From Vulcanimicrobiales bacterium (lineage in GTDB: Bacteria > Vulcanimicrobiota > Vulcanimicrobiia > Vulcanimicrobiales > Vulcanimicrobiaceae): a DNA stretch of 64,000 bases. Location of the stretch: the NCBI GenBank assembly GCA_038215615.1, contig JBBQQR010000003.1, forward strand, positions 1-64,000, read 5' to 3'. The notes under the pieces were generated by a model. That model did no database searches and had not been told where the DNA came from. It worked only from the letters and a program-made list of their open reading frames with translations. Within the stretch, counting starts at the first letter, position 1. Every line of letters starts with the position of its first letter. The position numbers and the translations under genes were made by a program. Of the stretch, positions 41,093 through 47,469 are shown one piece after another.

Positions 41093-41883
41093 GCTATGCC
41101 TCGCTGAAAAATTCGCTTGATCTCCGTCGCGCGCCCGGAGTCCACATCGATGATTACGACCGCCGCACAAAACTGTTTCGTGCCGGTCTTCTCGACTGAA
41201 AACCTATCCGAAAATCCAGTGATGAAGCGATCTAAGACGGCTTCCGACTCCATTCCGATGATGCCTTCGGTCGGCCCGGTCATGCCAACATCACTGATGT
41301 AGGCGGTTCCGCCCGGCAGAATATGTTCGTCCGCGGTCTGAACGTGCGTGTGCGTCCCGTAGACCGCCGCGACTTTGCCGTCTAAGTACCGGCCGAGTGC
41401 AACCTTCTCGCTCGTCGCTTCGGCGTGCACATCTACTACGATGACGCGCGCCTGCGCGCTCAGGTTTGCAAGCGCCGCATCCACGGCCCGAAACGGATCG
41501 TCCACCGGTGGCATGAACGTCCGGCCCATCACGTTTATGACTCCTATCGTCAAGCCATTGGCCGAAAACGTACCGGTGCCCCGGCCGGGAACGCCCGGCG
41601 GGTAGTTGACCGGACGGATGACTCGGTCACTCGATTCCAGGTACGTCTTGAAGTCGCGCTTGTCGAGAATGTGGTTTCCGCTTGTGATGAAATCGACGCC
41701 GGTCTCGAACATTTCTTCGGCGGTCAGCACCGTCAAACCGAATCCGCCGGCAGCGTTTTCTCCATTTGCGATGCACGCGTCGATCTTGTATTGATCGCGC
41801 GCCATCGGGAGGCAGCGTTTGAGCGTTTCTCGTCCCGGCGATCCGACGACGTCGCCCACCAGGAGCAGATTTAGTCTCTTTAT
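41089..41883 (-). CDS. ymdB: YmdB / TIGR00282 metallophosphoesterase; start likely non-canonical
   Basis: LLVGDVVG, NGEN, GNH, DVHAEATSEK, GTHTH, DVGMTG. Confidence 0.93.
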   Translation of the reverse strand: MKRLNLLLVGDVVGSPGRETLKRCLPMARDQYKIDACIANGENAAGGFGLTVLTAEEMFETGVDFITSGNHILDKRDFKTYLESSDRVIRPVNYPPGVPGRGTGTFSANGLTIGVINVMGRTFMPPVDDPFRAVDAALANLSAQARVIVVDVHAEATSEKVALGRYLDGKVAAVYGTHTHVQTADEHILPGGTAYISDVGMTGPTEGIIGMESEAVLDRFITGFSDRFSVEKTGTKQFCAAVVIIDVDSGRATEIKRIFQRGIA

Positions 41884-42425
41884 CGGCGGGCCGGAGCCTT
41901 TTTCTTTCGCGATTTCAAGAAGTACACGAGCACATGTTTTTCCTCACGGAAGCCGACAAGACTCTTTGACTGCGCGGGATCCCGTAACGCTTCGACCGCG
42001 CACTCGACCAGTTCATCCTGCGCCACCGGATCCTCATCGGGATGTTCGTCGGGTACGGTGTTACGCACCAGCGCCGCTCCAAAGAGCTGCGCGAAGAGTC
42101 CGGTCAGCATGCCCAGTTCGTCTTTGGTGAAGGTATCGAGGTCGCGGCTCACATGCACGAAGCTCAGCGCCCGCTCGGATTCGCACTCCACGCTCAAGTC
42201 GCCGCCACCGCCCGAGAGTGCCTGGAAACCCTTGACATGCGCTTCGATCTCCTCGCCGATCGCGCGTTGAGTCTGCCGGTCCATCCGCTGCCCGATGGCA
42301 AAGGTGAACCGCACCATGCCCTCGCTGGGCATCGAGCGGATAGACGCAATCTCAGGATAGCGCACGAGCAGCGCGCACACCAAATTGACGGTATCGCTAT
42401 TCTCGACGGGCGGCCGGGCGGTCAT
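41880..42425 (-). CDS. Conserved-looking hypothetical protein heading the ymdB-spoVS operon
   Basis: AAGGA SD; LLVRYPEI...LVGFREE..VLVY. Confidence 0.8.
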   Translation of the reverse strand: MTARPPVENSDTVNLVCALLVRYPEIASIRSMPSEGMVRFTFAIGQRMDRQTQRAIGEEIEAHVKGFQALSGGGGDLSVECESERALSFVHVSRDLDTFTKDELGMLTGLFAQLFGAALVRNTVPDEHPDEDPVAQDELVECAVEALRDPAQSKSLVGFREEKHVLVYFLKSRKKKAPARR

Positions 42426-42453
42426 GATCGATGCTTCCTTCGTACCTGTCTTT

Positions 42454-42524
42454 GGGCTGTGAATCGCTGGGGGGTCCGGTCTCTTAGACATCCGCTCCAG
42501 AGCCCCCCTTTGCTATTCACGCCC
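42454..42524 (-). promoter_or_regulatory. Long imperfect hairpin in the 5' leader of the ymdB operon
   Basis: GGGC/GCCC, GTGAAT/ATTCAC, G6/C6 and TCTGG/CCGGA stacked stems; G-U pair favours the minus strand. Confidence 0.5.
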
Positions 42525-42593
42525 TCTCCAACCAACAGCGAGGGGGGTCCGGTTGCCGGGGGGCCGCCACCGTCCCTCGCGAAGCCCCCAGCC

Positions 42594-43139
42594 GTGAGCA
42601 AACGCCTGCCGCTCTGGCTCGCCGCAGTCGTCCCATCGATGGCGGCCGGCCACGTCGCGGGCTACGCGCTATCGGGACTAAGCTCGGCCGACGGCCGGCA
42701 TGGCTGGCTCTCGCCCGCCCTTGAAGTCTGCGGAGCCGCGCTGATCGGCTTGGGCGCGCTCATCATCGCGAGCACCTTGCTGCGCGCCGGCGTCTTCCGT
42801 CGATCGCAGATCGAAAGCTCGGTGTTGGCGCTGGCGCCGCGGTTGGCGGCATCGCAGCTCGTGCTCTTCGTTGCGGCAGAGACATTCGAAGGGCGCAGCA
42901 TCACGCCGGCCGGCATCGCCACGCAGATCGTATCGGCGCTGCTCGCCGCGTATATGCTTTCGCTATTCAGCAGAATCATCGAACGCTGTATCGCCGGTGC
43001 CGCCGAAGCCGGCAGCTATCTCGACCGTCTTGCCGCGGTCACCGCGGCCTTCTCGCTCATCGAATCCGCGCCGCGATCCCTTGCGCTTTTCGCAAGTGCA
43101 GGCAACAGCCGTTTTCAGCGACCTCCTCCGTTCGCGTAG
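42594..43139 (+). CDS. Membrane leader protein with C-terminal RFQRPPP arrest-like motif
   Basis: About 4 hydrophobic segments, GH..GY and HGW motifs, ends QRPPPFA* 39 nt before the next gene. Confidence 0.8.
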   Translation: MSKRLPLWLAAVVPSMAAGHVAGYALSGLSSADGRHGWLSPALEVCGAALIGLGALIIASTLLRAGVFRRSQIESSVLALAPRLAASQLVLFVAAETFEGRSITPAGIATQIVSALLAAYMLSLFSRIIERCIAGAAEAGSYLDRLAAVTAAFSLIESAPRSLALFASAGNSRFQRPPPFA

Positions 43140-43171
43140 TCATTACGCTCTTGACTACACTCAAACGGAGG
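43125..43171 (+). promoter_or_regulatory. Shine-Dalgarno-sequestering hairpin
   Basis: CCTCCGTT (43125-32) pairs with AACGGAGG (43164-71); GTAGTCA (43136-42) pairs with TGACTAC (43152-58). Confidence 0.8.
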
Positions 43172-43178
43172 TATTCGC

Positions 43179-44948
43179 GTGTTGCAACGCATTTTTGCAG
43201 CCGCAGTTCGCGCGACGTGCGCGACTGTGGCGATCACGGCAGCCCTCGCCGGCCGGGCTGAAGCCGTTCCCGTCTTTGCCAATGGGCAAGGCGTCTCGTG
43301 TCAAACCTGTCACACCACGTTCCCGGGCATGACGCGCTACGGCATGATGGTGATGATGACGAATTTTCAAATTCTCGACCGTCACTCTCAAGACCAAGCG
43401 CTGCCAATCGCAGTGCGTATGTACGTGGATTCGGTGCTCGGCACGGGAGATCAAAAGGGATACACGCAGCTCGGCGATCTCTCGCTGCTGGGCGGCGGTT
43501 TTCTCGGAAGAAACTTCACGTGGTACGGCGAGCAGCACATCGTCGATTCCGGCGTTATCGGCCAAACCGAACAGGTGTGGCTTTCCTGGAACGGCTTGTT
43601 CGGCGGCACCAACTCGCTGCAGGTCGGAAAATTCCACACGCCGTTCCCGTTCATGCCGGCGCACGCGTGGACGCCTTCAGGCTACCTCCTAGCATTACAA
43701 ACCACAGGGCAGAACGATTTCAATGCCGCTGAAGCGCGCTGGGGCGTTGCCTTTTCCGGCATGAGTAACGAATTCATGTACAACGCTTCGTACCTCACCG
43801 GAAGCGGTCCGACGGGCGAAGCGCTCAACTTCAACAAGAACTCGCATCCCCGCGCATACGACTTCAACGTCTCGTATGGCGGTATGCAGATTCCGTGGGA
43901 GCTGGGATTGGTGGCGATGCGCGGCGACGCGCCGGTGGTCGATCCGGACTCCGGCGATTTTCTCTTTAGCGATCAGTGGACGCGCCAGGGAGCCTATCTC
44001 TCGTATCAAGACAGCAAGTGGCACTTTCAAACGATGTACTATCGCGGAAACGACACACAGCCGGACGTCGATACCCTGAACACCACATCGAACGGCTTCT
44101 TCTTCGAAGCGGCCCGCGATTTCGCCAAAGACCACGTGCTGGTGCGGTACGACGTCGCCTCGAGCGATTCGCTCGACCGGCAATACCTGGTGGACGTTTC
44201 ACACAACTTCCAGCCGAATCTCGCGCTGATCGGTGAAGTCCGGATGGTGCCGGCGCAAAAACCGCAGATCATGTTTAGGCTTGCGTATGCCGGACCGTGG
44301 GAAAACGGACGGCGAATTCTTTCCAACGGACACGACGTCTCCACAAACTTCACAGCGCAGCCGCAGTTGCATCCTGCGCAAACGCTCCCGGGTGCCGTGG
44401 CTTCGCCCCTTCCCGCAACGCCGGCCGGCGGCGACGCAAACAATGGGGCGCAACTCGTGCAATCCAACGGCTGCGCGGGCTGTCACGGTGCGGGCCTGAA
44501 GGGCGGGCGAATCGGACCCGTGCTGTTCGGCATCGAACACCACATGTCGAACGATCAGATCGCGGACTTTATCATACATCCGCGCGCGCCGATGCCGAAC
44601 TTCGGTTTCAACACCGCGCAAGTCTCGGACATCGTAGCGTATCTCACGTCACTCGACGGCGGCATCAACAATACTGCGCCTGTCGTCACGTTCTCGCCGG
44701 CGGCGCCGACCGATTTCGCAACGATTAGCGTGACGTTCCCGGGAACTCCGCCGGAAAGCGTCCGGGTTCTTCCGGTCATGCGCATGGGAACCAGCACGCA
44801 CCACACGGCGATGGTCGAATTGCAACCGCTGCCGTCGGATCCGCACACGTTCACCGGCCGCGTCGCATTTTCGATGGGCGGCCCCTGGATCGTACACATC
44901 CAATACGGCCGGCAGGAGTTGGACGTCCCGCTCAACATCGGGACGTAA
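43179..44948 (+). CDS. Cyc2-like cytochrome-porin fused to a second cytochrome c and a YtkA/FixH-like domain
   Basis: Signal peptide, AVPVFA.....CQTCHTTFP.MT.YG, amphipathic beta-strands, Pro/Ala linker, GCAGCH...PMP, then MRMG..HH...FSMGGPW. Confidence 0.82.
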   Translation: MLQRIFAAAVRATCATVAITAALAGRAEAVPVFANGQGVSCQTCHTTFPGMTRYGMMVMMTNFQILDRHSQDQALPIAVRMYVDSVLGTGDQKGYTQLGDLSLLGGGFLGRNFTWYGEQHIVDSGVIGQTEQVWLSWNGLFGGTNSLQVGKFHTPFPFMPAHAWTPSGYLLALQTTGQNDFNAAEARWGVAFSGMSNEFMYNASYLTGSGPTGEALNFNKNSHPRAYDFNVSYGGMQIPWELGLVAMRGDAPVVDPDSGDFLFSDQWTRQGAYLSYQDSKWHFQTMYYRGNDTQPDVDTLNTTSNGFFFEAARDFAKDHVLVRYDVASSDSLDRQYLVDVSHNFQPNLALIGEVRMVPAQKPQIMFRLAYAGPWENGRRILSNGHDVSTNFTAQPQLHPAQTLPGAVASPLPATPAGGDANNGAQLVQSNGCAGCHGAGLKGGRIGPVLFGIEHHMSNDQIADFIIHPRAPMPNFGFNTAQVSDIVAYLTSLDGGINNTAPVVTFSPAAPTDFATISVTFPGTPPESVRVLPVMRMGTSTHHTAMVELQPLPSDPHTFTGRVAFSMGGPWIVHIQYGRQELDVPLNIGT

Positions 44949-46363
44949 TGCGGCGGTCGTCCTTCCTGATGGCGAGCGGCGGCGCGATGATCGTCGCCGC
45001 CTTGCCGCCGCTTTCCGAACGCGGGCGTGCGAGCGAGTTGGTGCAGTACACGCTCACTGCCGGCCCCGTTCGTTTCTCGCCGGTTCCCGGCCTCAATTTT
45101 GCCGGTCTCGGCTATAACGGCACTATTCCCGGTCCGCTTTTGCGCGTGGTTCACGGGCAGAAGCTGCGCGCGAGGTTCATCAACCAAACCGGACAAGGCT
45201 CGACCATTCACTGGCACGGCATGATCTTGCCGAACAAAATGGATGGATCGGAAGGGGTGACGCAGCCCGCCGTTCCGCCGGGCGGATCGTTTCTCTACGA
45301 GTTTTCACCCGAACCGCCCGGCACGCGCTGGTATCACGATCACGTCAGCGATGGTTTGCTGCGCGGACTCTTCGGCATGATTATCGTTGAGGATCCGCGC
45401 GACCAGCGCCCCGATGCGGAATTTGTGCTCGTTTTCCACGACGTTCCGAAAATGGCCACGGTTCAACCAGCGATGATGGGAGTGGGCAACGGCCCGATGA
45501 CCGATCCAACCGGTTCGCCCGAGCTCATGCAAATGTCCGACGACAAGATGGGCGACGAGGTCGCGTTCAGCGCGCATTGCATCAACGGCGCTTCATATCC
45601 GGATACCAAACGGCTGGCCGTAAAAGTCGGCCAGCACGTGCGTCTGCGCATACTCAACGCCAACCCGACGCAAACGCGCTACGTCCGGCTTGCCGGACAC
45701 CGCCTGATCGTCACGCATAGCGACGGCAATCCGCTTCCGCGGCCCGTGGAAGTCGACGCGCTTCGCGTGGGAGTCGCAGAACGGTACGACGCATGGTTCG
45801 AAGTCAGTGAGCCCGGCGCATGGCTGCTGCAAGGCCTTTCGAGCGACCCGCTCGCGTTCGAGCAGGCCGCCGTGATGCATACTCCGGGAATGGAAAACGC
45901 TCCGCCGCTCAGCAGCCCGCAATCGCTCGAAGGCGTGGACTATTTCACGTACGTGAAAGCCGGGGGAGCGGGAACCGCGACGCCGGCGCAGCGCGGGAAA
46001 CAGTACGATTTTATTTTGGACGACGGAAAATACGGCAGTTCGCGCTGGACGATCAACGGAAAGACCTATCCGAATACGCCAAGGATCGACGTGCACCGCA
46101 ACGATCTCGTCACCGTCCGTTTCACCAATAAGACCGATATGGACCATCCGATGCACCTGCACGGCCACGTTTTCGAAGTGACCGAAGTTGACGGGATCCC
46201 GCTCGCGCGGCCCCTGCCGAAAGACACCTCGCTGGTGCGTGGGAACGGAGGGACGCTGAGCTGGCGTTTTCGTGCGGACTCTCCCCCCGGCCGCTGGCTG
46301 CTGCACTGCCACAACGCGATCCACATGATGGACGGCATGATGACGCTGGTGCAGTACGGATGA
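44948..46363 (+). CDS. Tat-exported multicopper oxidase
   Basis: MRRSSFL Tat motif; HWHG, WYHDH, HPMHLHGH, HCHNAIH....M. Confidence 0.95.
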   Translation: MRRSSFLMASGGAMIVAALPPLSERGRASELVQYTLTAGPVRFSPVPGLNFAGLGYNGTIPGPLLRVVHGQKLRARFINQTGQGSTIHWHGMILPNKMDGSEGVTQPAVPPGGSFLYEFSPEPPGTRWYHDHVSDGLLRGLFGMIIVEDPRDQRPDAEFVLVFHDVPKMATVQPAMMGVGNGPMTDPTGSPELMQMSDDKMGDEVAFSAHCINGASYPDTKRLAVKVGQHVRLRILNANPTQTRYVRLAGHRLIVTHSDGNPLPRPVEVDALRVGVAERYDAWFEVSEPGAWLLQGLSSDPLAFEQAAVMHTPGMENAPPLSSPQSLEGVDYFTYVKAGGAGTATPAQRGKQYDFILDDGKYGSSRWTINGKTYPNTPRIDVHRNDLVTVRFTNKTDMDHPMHLHGHVFEVTEVDGIPLARPLPKDTSLVRGNGGTLSWRFRADSPPGRWLLHCHNAIHMMDGMMTLVQYG

Positions 46364-47469
46364 TGATTCTTCAGGCGCTGGAGCTGGCTGCGGGCATGTT
46401 TTGGCAAGTCGCCTGGAGTCTGGTGCTCGGTTTCTTTCTTTCGGCCGCGATTCAAACGCTGGTCTCGAAAGAGCGCATGACCGCGCAGCTCGGCCGCAAC
46501 GGCGTGCGCGAAATCGCGCTCGCAACCGTTTACGGTGCGGCGAGCTCTTCCTGTTCGTACGCCGCCGCGGCGATGAGCAAGTCACTCTTCAAAAAGGGCG
46601 CCGGATTTATTCCCTCGCTCGCGTTTCTCTTCGCATCGACCAATCTCGTCGTCGAGCTCGGCATCATTTTGTACCTGCTGATGGGATGGCAGTTCACTGC
46701 AGCGGAGTGGATCGGGGGCGTTCTGCTGATCGCGATCATGGCGCTGATCGTCAAAGCGACGTATCCCGCGGCGTTGATCGCGGAAGCTCGCCGTCATCTA
46801 GACGAGGCCACCGGCGAGGACGAAACCGTCGCCGGTGAAACATTTTGGGACAAACTGCGTAATCCGCAGACCCCGGTCACGATTGCGCAGACATTCGTGA
46901 TGGACGTTTCCATGCTGTGGAAAGATTTGGCAGCCGGGTTCTTGATCGCCGGCGCACTTGGCATTTTCGTGCCCGCCGGCGTGTGGGGCACATTCTTTCT
47001 GCATGGCGCGCCCGCGGGAGTTCAAATCGTCGCCAACGCGATCGCCGGACCGCTGGTGGCGATCGTTTCGTTCGTCTGCTCGATCGGCAACGTTCCGATG
47101 GCGGCGATCCTATGGGGGAGCGGGATCAGTTTCGGCGGCGTCTTGAGTTTCTTGTTCGCCGATCTGATCGTGTTGCCGCTGCTCGACGTCTACCGGCGCT
47201 ATTATGGCTTGAAGATGGCCGCCTACATCGGCGCCGTCTTTTTCGTGACGATGGTCGCGGCTGGGATCATCATGCAGTACGTCTTCGCAGCGTTCGGGGC
47301 GGTCCCGCATCCCAATCCGCATATCCGCACCGAACTCTCGCTCTTTGCGATCAACTACACGTTTTGGCTGAACCTCGCACTTGGCGCCCTGGCGATCGCG
47401 CTGTGGTACGTGAACGTCAAACATCCGATGTCGCACAGCTGCCCCGCTCACGAGGGCCACGCCCACTAA
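46360..47469 (+). CDS. DUF318/ArsP-type permease with His-rich tail
   Basis: SSSCSYAA, ASTNL, FVCSIGNVP, C-terminal HPMSHSCPAHEGHAH. Confidence 0.88.
   Translation: MMILQALELAAGMFWQVAWSLVLGFFLSAAIQTLVSKERMTAQLGRNGVREIALATVYGAASSSCSYAAAAMSKSLFKKGAGFIPSLAFLFASTNLVVELGIILYLLMGWQFTAAEWIGGVLLIAIMALIVKATYPAALIAEARRHLDEATGEDETVAGETFWDKLRNPQTPVTIAQTFVMDVSMLWKDLAAGFLIAGALGIFVPAGVWGTFFLHGAPAGVQIVANAIAGPLVAIVSFVCSIGNVPMAAILWGSGISFGGVLSFLFADLIVLPLLDVYRRYYGLKMAAYIGAVFFVTMVAAGIIMQYVFAAFGAVPHPNPHIRTELSLFAINYTFWLNLALGALAIALWYVNVKHPMSHSCPAHEGHAH

Follow-up and report, generated by a model that had tools for sequence, protein, structure and literature searches.

The contig JBBQQR010000003.1 of the Vulcanimicrobiales bacterium assembly GCA_038215615.1 was analysed over its first 64,000 nucleotides, forward strand (hereafter the window). 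It carries a 181-amino-acid leader reading frame upstream of the genes for an outer-membrane cytochrome-porin and a multicopper oxidase. We propose, at a probability of roughly 0.7, that a programmed ribosomal pause at an Arg-Pro-Pro-Pro (RPPP) motif near the C-terminus of the leader holds the anti-Shine-Dalgarno (anti-SD) sequence of the mRNA in the ribosome and so permits translation of the porin and oxidase, the pause being probably tuned by the predicted membrane domain of the leader, which has four transmembrane (TM) segments. The RNA structure, its conservation and covariation, the conservation of the motif and the gene context were computed directly. The elements concerned are the following.

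42594..43139, forward strand: leader gene, 181 amino acids, predicted 4-TM membrane protein; GTG start at 42594, TAG stop at 43137-43139.
43110..43130, forward strand: codons R173-F174-Q175-R176-P177-P178-P179, putative arrest or pause motif (R[PA]PP in 67 of 71 relatives).
43125..43132, forward strand: anti-SD, which is the 5' arm of the outer stem, CCTCCGTT; codons P178 and P179 with the first two nucleotides of F180.
43136..43142, forward strand: 5' arm of the inner stem, GTAGTCA; holds the stop codon TAG, 43137-43139.
43153..43159, forward strand: 3' arm of the inner stem, TGACTAC; exact complement of GTAGTCA over 7 bp.
43164..43171, forward strand: 3' arm of the outer stem, AACGGAGG; perfect complement of CCTCCGTT, containing the SD.

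Translation of 42594-43139 bears out the C-terminus read by a first-pass annotation of the window, R173-F174-Q175-R176-P177-P178-P179-F180-A-stop. Both stems which that annotation had drawn are present in the minimum free energy (MFE) structure: the Pro-Pro-Phe codons (CCTCCGTT) pair with the SD of the next gene (AACGGAGG), and the stop codon sits in a second, perfect 7-bp stem (GTAGTCA/TGACTAC). The SD proper, GGAGG at 43167-43171, lies 7 nucleotides before the GTG (43179) of the next open reading frame (ORF), and 39 nucleotides separate that GTG from the leader stop. The ViennaRNA MFE of 43090-43200, with both stems formed, is -40.5 kcal/mol, as against a mean of -26.1 (standard deviation 3.0) for dinucleotide shuffles of the same segment (z = -4.84; 0 of 200 as stable). 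A scan of 42300-43400 against Rfam at E <= 1 returns no family. An intrinsic-terminator scan of this region finds 0 sites, and its lone promoter-like match is on the minus strand; since no intrinsic-terminator site is found, the leader hairpin is not taken for a terminator or attenuator.

The arrangement recurs in orthologous loci. Thirty-eight were collected; in 36 a stop comes no more than 12 codons after the motif, and these 36 comprise 30 distinct sequences; each was folded to its own MFE from the RFQ codons to the downstream start. In all 30 the SD is paired, at all or all but one of its bases, with the 3' coding end of the leader, and an inner hairpin of 5 bp or more is nested inside. 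At least 4 SD bases are paired with the RPPP codons in 28 loci, at least 2 nucleotides of the stop codon fall within the inner stem in 25, and the stop is the third codon after PPP in 24. Because motif and hairpin recur together in all 30 distinct orthologous loci, the arrangement exceeds chance. The bases flanking the constant CCUCC/GGAGG core covary (CCTCCGCA/TGCGGAGG, CCTCCCG/CGGGAGG and CCCTCCGA/TCGGAGGG), and at one locus the anti-SD is shifted into an R-L-Q codon string (CCTCCAG/CTGGAGG).

Cognate duplexes between leader end and SD have a mean energy of -15.83 kcal/mol, compared with -12.65 (standard deviation 0.43) when partners are permuted between loci; none of 20,000 permutations is as good. 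For this test the set was reduced beforehand to 22 non-redundant loci by dropping one near-duplicate and seven loci closely related to the window. On a fixed MAFFT alignment, 79.2% of the cells of the outer 8-pair helix are paired against 71.7% with shuffled partners (0/500 as high), and the covariation score of this helix is 0.124 against 0.047 (0/500), with double-sided changes at three pairs; these shuffle controls do not preserve relatedness, which lessens their weight for our proposal, while the permutation test and controls in which partners are slid by 1-3 columns (37.9-53.4% paired) are less affected. RNAalifold returns no pairs on the 30-segment MAFFT alignment. This null is ascribed to the gappy loop region, and the named helix was counted instead on the same alignment, alongside the per-sequence folds. 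Judged from these pairings, the SD/anti-SD helix is conserved with compensatory changes. The check suggested in the first-pass annotation, covariation in orthologues, comes out in its favour: the hairpin is found, with compensatory changes, in 30/30 distinct loci, and R[P/A]PP is kept in 67/71 family proteins.

In these 67 proteins, which extend to about 28% identity, the motif stands no more than 12 residues from the C-terminus and reads RPPP in 64 and RAPP in three. The four proteins that lack it (112, 164, 112 and 173 amino acids) are fragments or chimeras without alignment over the C-terminal part. Exactly two residues follow the motif in 47 of the 67, and its distance to the stop is always 2-8 residues. 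An alignment of 42 sequences, again down to 28% identity, has R176, P178 and P179 among its invariant positions, together with H20, H36, Q88, E96 and E99; nearly invariant ones include G19, Y24, C132, Y142, R145, F174 and P177.

The codons used at the 30 distinct loci separate the constraint on the peptide from that on the RNA. R176, invariant in 30/30, is encoded by CGA, CGC, CGT, CGG or AGG; five codons serve for R173; F174 is TTT in 17 loci and TTC in 12. The R173, F174 and R176 codons lie outside the hairpin stems of the window, and only locus L033 has its anti-SD in these codons. The residue after PPP is unconstrained, with 11 different residues at this position. By this codon comparison, selection acts on the peptide, beyond the RNA. 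CCT, for its part, makes up 8.4% of the 34,735 Pro codons in the long ORFs of the genome, and is found at P177 in 16/30 loci and at P178 in 20/30. The free synonymous codons and the CCT enrichment together indicate that peptide and RNA are both constrained, as expected if stall and pairing must coincide. The published core is RAPP/RGPP, of which RPPP is a variant; RAPP itself is the form found in three family members. The genome of the window has 20 stop-to-stop ORFs ending in R[APG]PP; all but the leader look like wrong-frame products, and no SD hairpin is obvious, by eye, near the others.

Not every orthologous porin gene is preceded by a leader. The upstream regions of these genes were inspected in 17 genomes without a leader hit (one unpublished genome, G177, was excluded). 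In three, an ORF ends in FSRPPP plus 2-3 residues (L064, 536-1252, forward strand; L065, 181-711, reverse strand; L070, 207-848, reverse strand), and hmmsearch with the family profile gives these ORFs E-values of 1e-26, 2.5e-7 and 1.1e-6 for a database of 3 sequences. L064 and L065 represent a divergent subfamily ending LFSRPPPA(F/L)S, in which 'ELCES' replaces 'E..EG'. Their SD is AGGAAAGG, and it pairs with the final codons and the stop immediately after PPP. Thirteen of the 17 porin loci have no R-x-PP-ending ORF upstream, and one more is too short to judge. These 13 leaderless loci suggest that leader and hairpin form an optional cassette before an otherwise conserved operon, which fits a regulator better than an obligate subunit. 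The leaderless loci are L060-L063, L066-L069, L071-L074 and L076, and one of them (genome G091) belongs to the window's own genus. An outer-membrane-protein-like gene or a terminator-like hairpin immediately precedes several of these porin genes.

The leader protein was modelled with AlphaFold2 from the 42-sequence alignment (mean predicted local distance difference test (pLDDT) 85; predicted template-modelling score 0.73). Helices are predicted at 7-27, 39-62, 77-99, 105-154 and 161-174, and the first four are also backed by hydropathy as membrane segments, in keeping with the roughly four TM segments counted in the first-pass annotation. The distribution of Lys and Arg (two at the N-terminus, three in the loop 63-76, five in the tail) fits a predicted topology with both termini inside. 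The invariant residues of the membrane domain map as follows.

42651-42653, forward strand: codon of H20, invariant in the 42-sequence alignment.
42699-42701, forward strand: codon of H36, invariant in the same alignment.
42855-42857, forward strand: codon of Q88, likewise invariant.
42879-42881, forward strand: codon of E96, likewise invariant.
42888-42890, forward strand: codon of E99, likewise invariant.

The helix topology predicts a position in the periplasmic half of the membrane for H20, H36, E96 and E99, and one in mid-membrane for Q88. With their clustering taken from the helix positions of the model, the five look like a metal site. C132 is the only near-invariant Cys, and there is no CxxxC. 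H20 and H36 are the two His motifs that the first-pass annotation had picked out, and both are invariant in the 42 diverse relatives. Its description of the leader as polytopic and based on His instead of Cys agrees with the invariant His/Glu/Gln set, with the missing CxxxC and with the family search: DUF2946 does not occur among the matches listed, the best 25 of 33 families (42 members, E <= 1), the remaining 8 being single-member matches ranked under these (weakest listed E 0.25). By model match, among the matches listed, or by architecture, the leader family is not DUF2946. The spacer from A119 in TM4 to R176 measures 56-58 residues in 40/42 sequences, and residues 146-170 are poorly conserved despite this fixed length.

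It appears from all this that pairing, peptide and membrane domain could work together in the following way. The leader, cytochrome-porin and multicopper oxidase genes would lie on one mRNA. While this mRNA is free, the porin SD would be locked in the two-tier hairpin, whose outer stem involves the P178-P179-F180 codons and whose inner stem involves the leader stop. Peptide-bond formation would be slow once R176-P177-P178 occupies the P site, with P179 next in the A site, as at polyproline or RAPP-like motifs; this stall register is borrowed by analogy from the ApdA/ApdP structures (PMC10951233). The decoding centre of a ribosome paused in this register would cover the anti-SD, which begins at the first base of the P-site codon. 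Through its footprint and helicase, a ribosome keeps mRNA single-stranded to roughly 11-15 nucleotides beyond that base. Such a reach would extend into the inner stem and leave the SD, 42 nucleotides downstream, free for a second ribosome. With the anti-SD in the decoding centre, the SD would be single-stranded, so that initiation at GTG 43179 becomes possible. The pause would thus convert directly into initiation on the porin gene, the oxidase probably following by coupling at the TAATG overlap described below.

Beyond the computed features we infer the pause, the way in which the SD becomes unmasked, the sensing step with its ligand, and the direction of the response. The length of the pause, hence the output, would probably be set by elongation factor P (EF-P) and by the state of the inserted 4-TM domain. 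Given the constant spacer length and the conserved residues on the periplasmic side, folding, insertion or the ligand state of this domain may pull on the nascent chain. By analogy, a ligand might either lengthen the stall, as copper does in CutF, or shorten it, as proposed for CruR (both are compared below).

Several points weigh against this proposal. RPPP is not avoided in the long ORFs of the genome (13 seen, 8.8 expected) and RAPP is (7 seen, 21.3 expected), as counted on a crude gene set of 1,519 stop-to-stop ORFs of at least 300 codons. This lack of depletion implies that RPPP alone probably causes no unconditional arrest and acts as a modest pause that needs context. The genome encodes EF-P (261.6 bits, cut-off 185.8), and EF-P normally relieves polyproline pauses. 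The C-terminal 30 residues of the structural model are of low confidence (pLDDT 59-67), and the function of the conserved His, Glu and Gln may be a non-regulatory one. Finally, a ribosome that passes through, or that terminates two codons later, would also open the hairpin, so that coupling suffices to account for the RNA structure.

The last point leads to an alternative that we consider rather unlikely, namely plain translational coupling without sensing. Porin and oxidase would then be made when, and as often as, the leader is made, the leader would be an ordinary inner-membrane partner, and Pro-Pro would be present since CCUCC is a natural anti-SD. Any ribosome reaching the stop would open both stems, the stop coming right after the two post-PPP codons in 24/30 loci; the CCT enrichment shows selection at the RNA level, the N-terminal domain is conserved like that of a working protein, and the undepleted RPPP of the proteome points the same way. 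However, an anti-SD needs only CCUCC, that is two codons, whereas the third Pro, R176, F174 and R173 are also kept, with free synonymous codons. The U of CCUCC has been lost, but the Pro kept, in 10/30 loci (pair 21-98). Nor does coupling call for the RAPP of three relatives, a proven arrest motif, or for the fixed spacer between TM4 and the motif, and the absence of a leader from 13/17 of the orthologous porin loci checked shows that it is not an obligate subunit.

A pause of another kind would occur if the leader were a monitor of Sec/YidC insertion, like SecM, MifM or VemP, with an arrest released by insertion force and reporting insertion capacity, with no part for a metal. The first-pass annotation had already named membrane insertion as an alternative to metal. 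The polytopic leader would allow for this, as would its fixed spacer, which has about 51 residues between the point where TM4 ends and the P-site residue, a length within range of the pull of an inserting helix. Force-profile work has an inserting helix pull on the chain at spacers of about that range. Still, the genes under control would encode a porin and an oxidase and include none of secA, secDF or yidC, and a pure insertion monitor has no need of the invariant H/H/Q/E/E set; we hold this reading to be very improbable. No more credible is the idea that RFQRPPP works in the completed protein, for instance in docking or sorting, and overlaps the anti-SD only incidentally: C-terminal invariance is equally expected of a binding motif, but this one is always 2-8 residues from the stop, the anti-SD is always in its codons or adjacent to them, even in the subfamily with another SD, no partner is evident, and a C-terminal R-x-P-P in small membrane proteins is a published arrest-peptide signature (PMC12992588). 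A programmed pause at RPPP, opening the hairpin for porin translation, therefore remains the preferred reading.

By its conservation, the leader ORF is a real gene of a previously undescribed family of Eremiobacterota. Its reading frame stays open further 5' of GTG 42594; that stretch is taken as non-coding since relatives have an ATG at the same position and the annotated N-terminal extensions are shifted in frame among themselves. Pfam and NCBIfam scans give no family for the protein. A word-indexed search yields 25 relatives, the sole organism-named one from Candidatus Rubrimentiphilum, and an exhaustive phmmer search of 1.84 billion cluster representatives yields 45 proteins at E <= 0.001, of which 40 are at E <= 1e-10. 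A profile search of a 5.8-billion-protein set adds one new protein only and no named family. In the ESM Atlas only unnamed clusters are matched, one of which has Actinomycetota as its commonest label (phylum known for 5/52 members). Public contigs that carry the leader gene are labelled Vulcanimicrobiota or Eremiobacterota.

A genome scan finds the gene in 47/401 genomes of the phylum, with 42/296 in the window's own family, 4/5 in a second family and 0 in the others; no second match occurs in the window's own genome. Three unpublished genomes (G230, G245, G328) are counted in this tally and in no locus comparison. Since three more members later came to light in scan-negative genomes, these counts are minimum values. 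Foldseek of the leader model against the PDB gives nothing at E <= 0.001 (best 0.83). Kinship with FtsX-type proteins was considered and set aside: a wide VIA-align search reaches a best Z of 7.3 (4-TM domains of the BceB, YbbP, MacB and FtsX type), which is under the meaningful level for helical bundles, and the weak Pfam FtsX matches of five members (best E 0.0051) are taken to reflect a common 4-helix arrangement.

One member departs from the usual layout. In L008, 6490-6625 (genome G202, a complete-chromosome metagenome-assembled genome (MAG) that also contains L023), no stop follows RFQRPPP and the frame continues into the porin. The open frame, 788-793 amino acids, runs through the intergenic hairpin, with the SD/anti-SD pairing retained and a TAG still present in another frame. 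This read-through is either a sequencing indel or a natural fusion.

Within the genus, the DNA upstream of the leader (42420-42593) shows strong conservation, though not of the kind seen in a reading frame. This stretch contains a 12-nucleotide direct repeat, GGGGGGTCCGGT, at 42469-42480 and 42542-42553 (73 nucleotides apart), with complementary C-runs, and no SD precedes the leader GTG at 42594. It may act as promoter or operator, or form a structured 5' untranslated region; the fold of 42455-42610 is no more stable than its shuffles (z -0.30). A divergently transcribed ORF of 203 amino acids at 41880-42491, reverse strand, has no Pfam or NCBIfam match and is syntenic with the leader in 13/28 loci.

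Downstream of the leader come the following genes.

43179..44948, forward strand: first regulated gene, outer-membrane cytochrome-porin, 589 amino acids (assigned by motif, Pfam, AlphaFold2 and Foldseek).
44948..46363, forward strand: second regulated gene, multicopper oxidase, 471 amino acids, with a twin-arginine translocation (Tat)-like N-terminus, MRRSSFL.
46360..47469, forward strand: ArsP_1-type permease, weakly similar to the SO_0444 Cu/Zn efflux family.

The cytochrome-porin/oxidase operon named in the first-pass annotation is upheld by Pfam, Foldseek and the comparison of loci. The 589-residue protein has a signal peptide and a single N-terminal CxxCH (CQTCH, residues 41-45), followed by beta-barrel strands at about 77-372 in an AlphaFold2 model of moderate quality (pLDDT 63.9). 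With this model, Foldseek retrieves OmpU (6ehc_A, E 4.5e-11, probability 1.00) among 252 matches at E <= 0.001, which are general porins. The C-terminal part consists of a cytochrome c domain at 419-492 (Pfam Cytochrome_CBB3, 3.1e-11) and then a beta-sandwich. As modelled, the layout is Cyc2-like, with the cytochrome c domain and beta-sandwich added C-terminally; Pfam and NCBIfam scans return no Cyc2 match, so the likeness is one of layout. Eremiobacterota MAGs are reported to carry Cyc2-like genes (PMC8357290). The stop of the porin gene overlaps the ATG of the oxidase (TAATG, 44946-44950), and by this overlap the oxidase is probably translationally coupled to the gated porin.

Longer flanks are available for 28 loci; the porin comes after the leader in 27 of these, and the oxidase after the porin in 24. 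Of the other four, two are contigs that end early, one has no oxidase and one (G063) has a 324-aa gene instead. The permease follows the oxidase in 3/28 (L002, L005, L006), all among the closest relatives. In L035 (451-1425, reverse strand) and its counterpart L037 (genomes G063 and G120), leader, RPPP and SD hairpin stand before this different 324-aa gene, which has no Pfam match. In a second family of the order (genomes G167, G303 and G150; L058, L059), there is a single in-frame TGA within the porin match, or else the gene falls into two, a porin of about 400 amino acids and a separate cytochrome c/beta-sandwich part. A more distant cytochrome-porin paralogue lies in the window's own genome (contig C22, 23938-25251, reverse strand; E 6.6e-60, model positions 19-441).

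We also put forward a more specific reading, tentatively and with the odds somewhat against it. The 4-TM domain may be a new periplasm-facing Fe(II)/Cu sensor built of His, Glu and Gln, tuning a hybrid RPPP arrest with the Cyc2-like module as its output. Ligand binding would alter the pull on the spacer of about 57 residues, and the arrest would lie between EF-P-sensitive polyproline pausing and EF-P-refractory RAPP arrest. If true, this would be the first Cyc2-like outer-membrane iron-oxidation/electron-transfer module known to be under nascent-chain arrest control.

The more general proposal of a programmed pause would, if right, bear on how such operons are read. An unannotated family, from a phylum with almost no cultured members, would join the few leaders that turn an extracytoplasmic signal into a translational decision via a stalled ribosome. 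Arrest-peptide control would be linked to a Cyc2-like porin and a multicopper oxidase, genes used to infer iron oxidation or metal resistance from metagenomes, and if their translation is gated, transcript levels alone may misreport porin and oxidase activity. The natural variation is unusually informative, comprising 30 distinct loci with compensatory changes, a subfamily with another SD, RAPP variants, leaderless orthologues and one in-frame fusion, which amount to naturally occurring mutants of such a gate.

The principle is already known from SecM-secA, CutF-cutO, CruR and the RAPP/RGPP peptides, and the leader is an undescribed family within it. Full-text literature holds no description of it among the matches listed; the scope was that of the article texts, and related ORFs may be listed in the survey supplements. 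The idea put forward in the first-pass annotation is less new than it assumed, since polytopic His-based RAPP/RGPP peptides upstream of metal genes have been published for Streptomyces lividans (PMC12992588).

These peptides offer the nearest comparison in form. The RAPP/RGPP survey places the motifs near the C-termini of small secreted or membrane proteins, upstream of metal-related genes, one of these proteins being a 4-TM Streptomyces one for which His/Met copper ligands are predicted (PMC12992588). ApdA, ApdP, the RQH family and S. lividans SLIV_18480 share with the leader an R-x-P-P a few residues from the C-terminus and a downstream gene on the same strand (PMC12992588, PMC10987492), and some of the RAPP/RGPP peptides are, as the leader is predicted to be, 4-TM proteins with conserved His upstream of metal genes. 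The dominant motif of the leader is RPPP, in contrast to the published RAPP/RGPP core. Arrest has been shown in vitro for the Streptomyces proteins, whereas that of the leader is predicted from sequence, and its likeness to SLIV_18480 is by description. ApdA is known to be species-specific in its action.

In CutF, encoded by cutFOG of Rhodobacter capsulatus, a C-terminal PPP and a stem-loop masking the SD of cutO act with EF-P in copper-dependent control (10.1101/2025.02.05.636593; PMC9973294), and its authors consider that even a transient stall suffices to melt such a stem-loop (10.1101/2025.02.05.636593). CutF resembles the leader in its small size, in being exported or targeted to the membrane, in its C-terminal PPP, and in having an SD-hiding stem-loop and a multicopper oxidase in the operon. 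EF-P is involved in CutF control and the metal site faces the periplasm (10.1101/2025.02.05.636593; PMC9973294); for the leader, EF-P is encoded and the site is predicted. CutF is secreted with a cleavable Sec signal and has a CxxxC, whereas the leader is a predicted 4-TM protein with invariant His/Glu/Gln and no CxxxC. The CTTC anti-SD of CutF is in the cutF-cutO intergenic stem-loop, whereas that of the leader consists of the putative stall codons themselves. Unlike in cutFOG, the cytochrome-porin comes first and the oxidase second.

CruR of Bordetella pertussis, a DUF2946 protein, has a C-terminal RAPP and responds to copper (10.1101/2025.02.05.636593; PMC12992588). Like the leader in our proposal, it is an upstream ORF that controls a downstream outer-membrane protein gene. 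CruR works through Rho-dependent termination over a 162-nucleotide spacer and is independent of its signal peptide (10.1101/2025.02.05.636593; PMC9973294), whereas the leader has a 39-nucleotide spacer, direct occlusion of the SD and no terminator-like site. In SecM-secA, as proposed for the leader, the downstream SD lies in a stem-loop that melts when a ribosome stalls towards the end of the upstream ORF, the SecM arrest motif being of the R-A-G-P type (10.1101/2025.02.05.636593). The leader differs from SecM in that its target is not a secretion component and in being polytopic, with a conserved ligand-like site.

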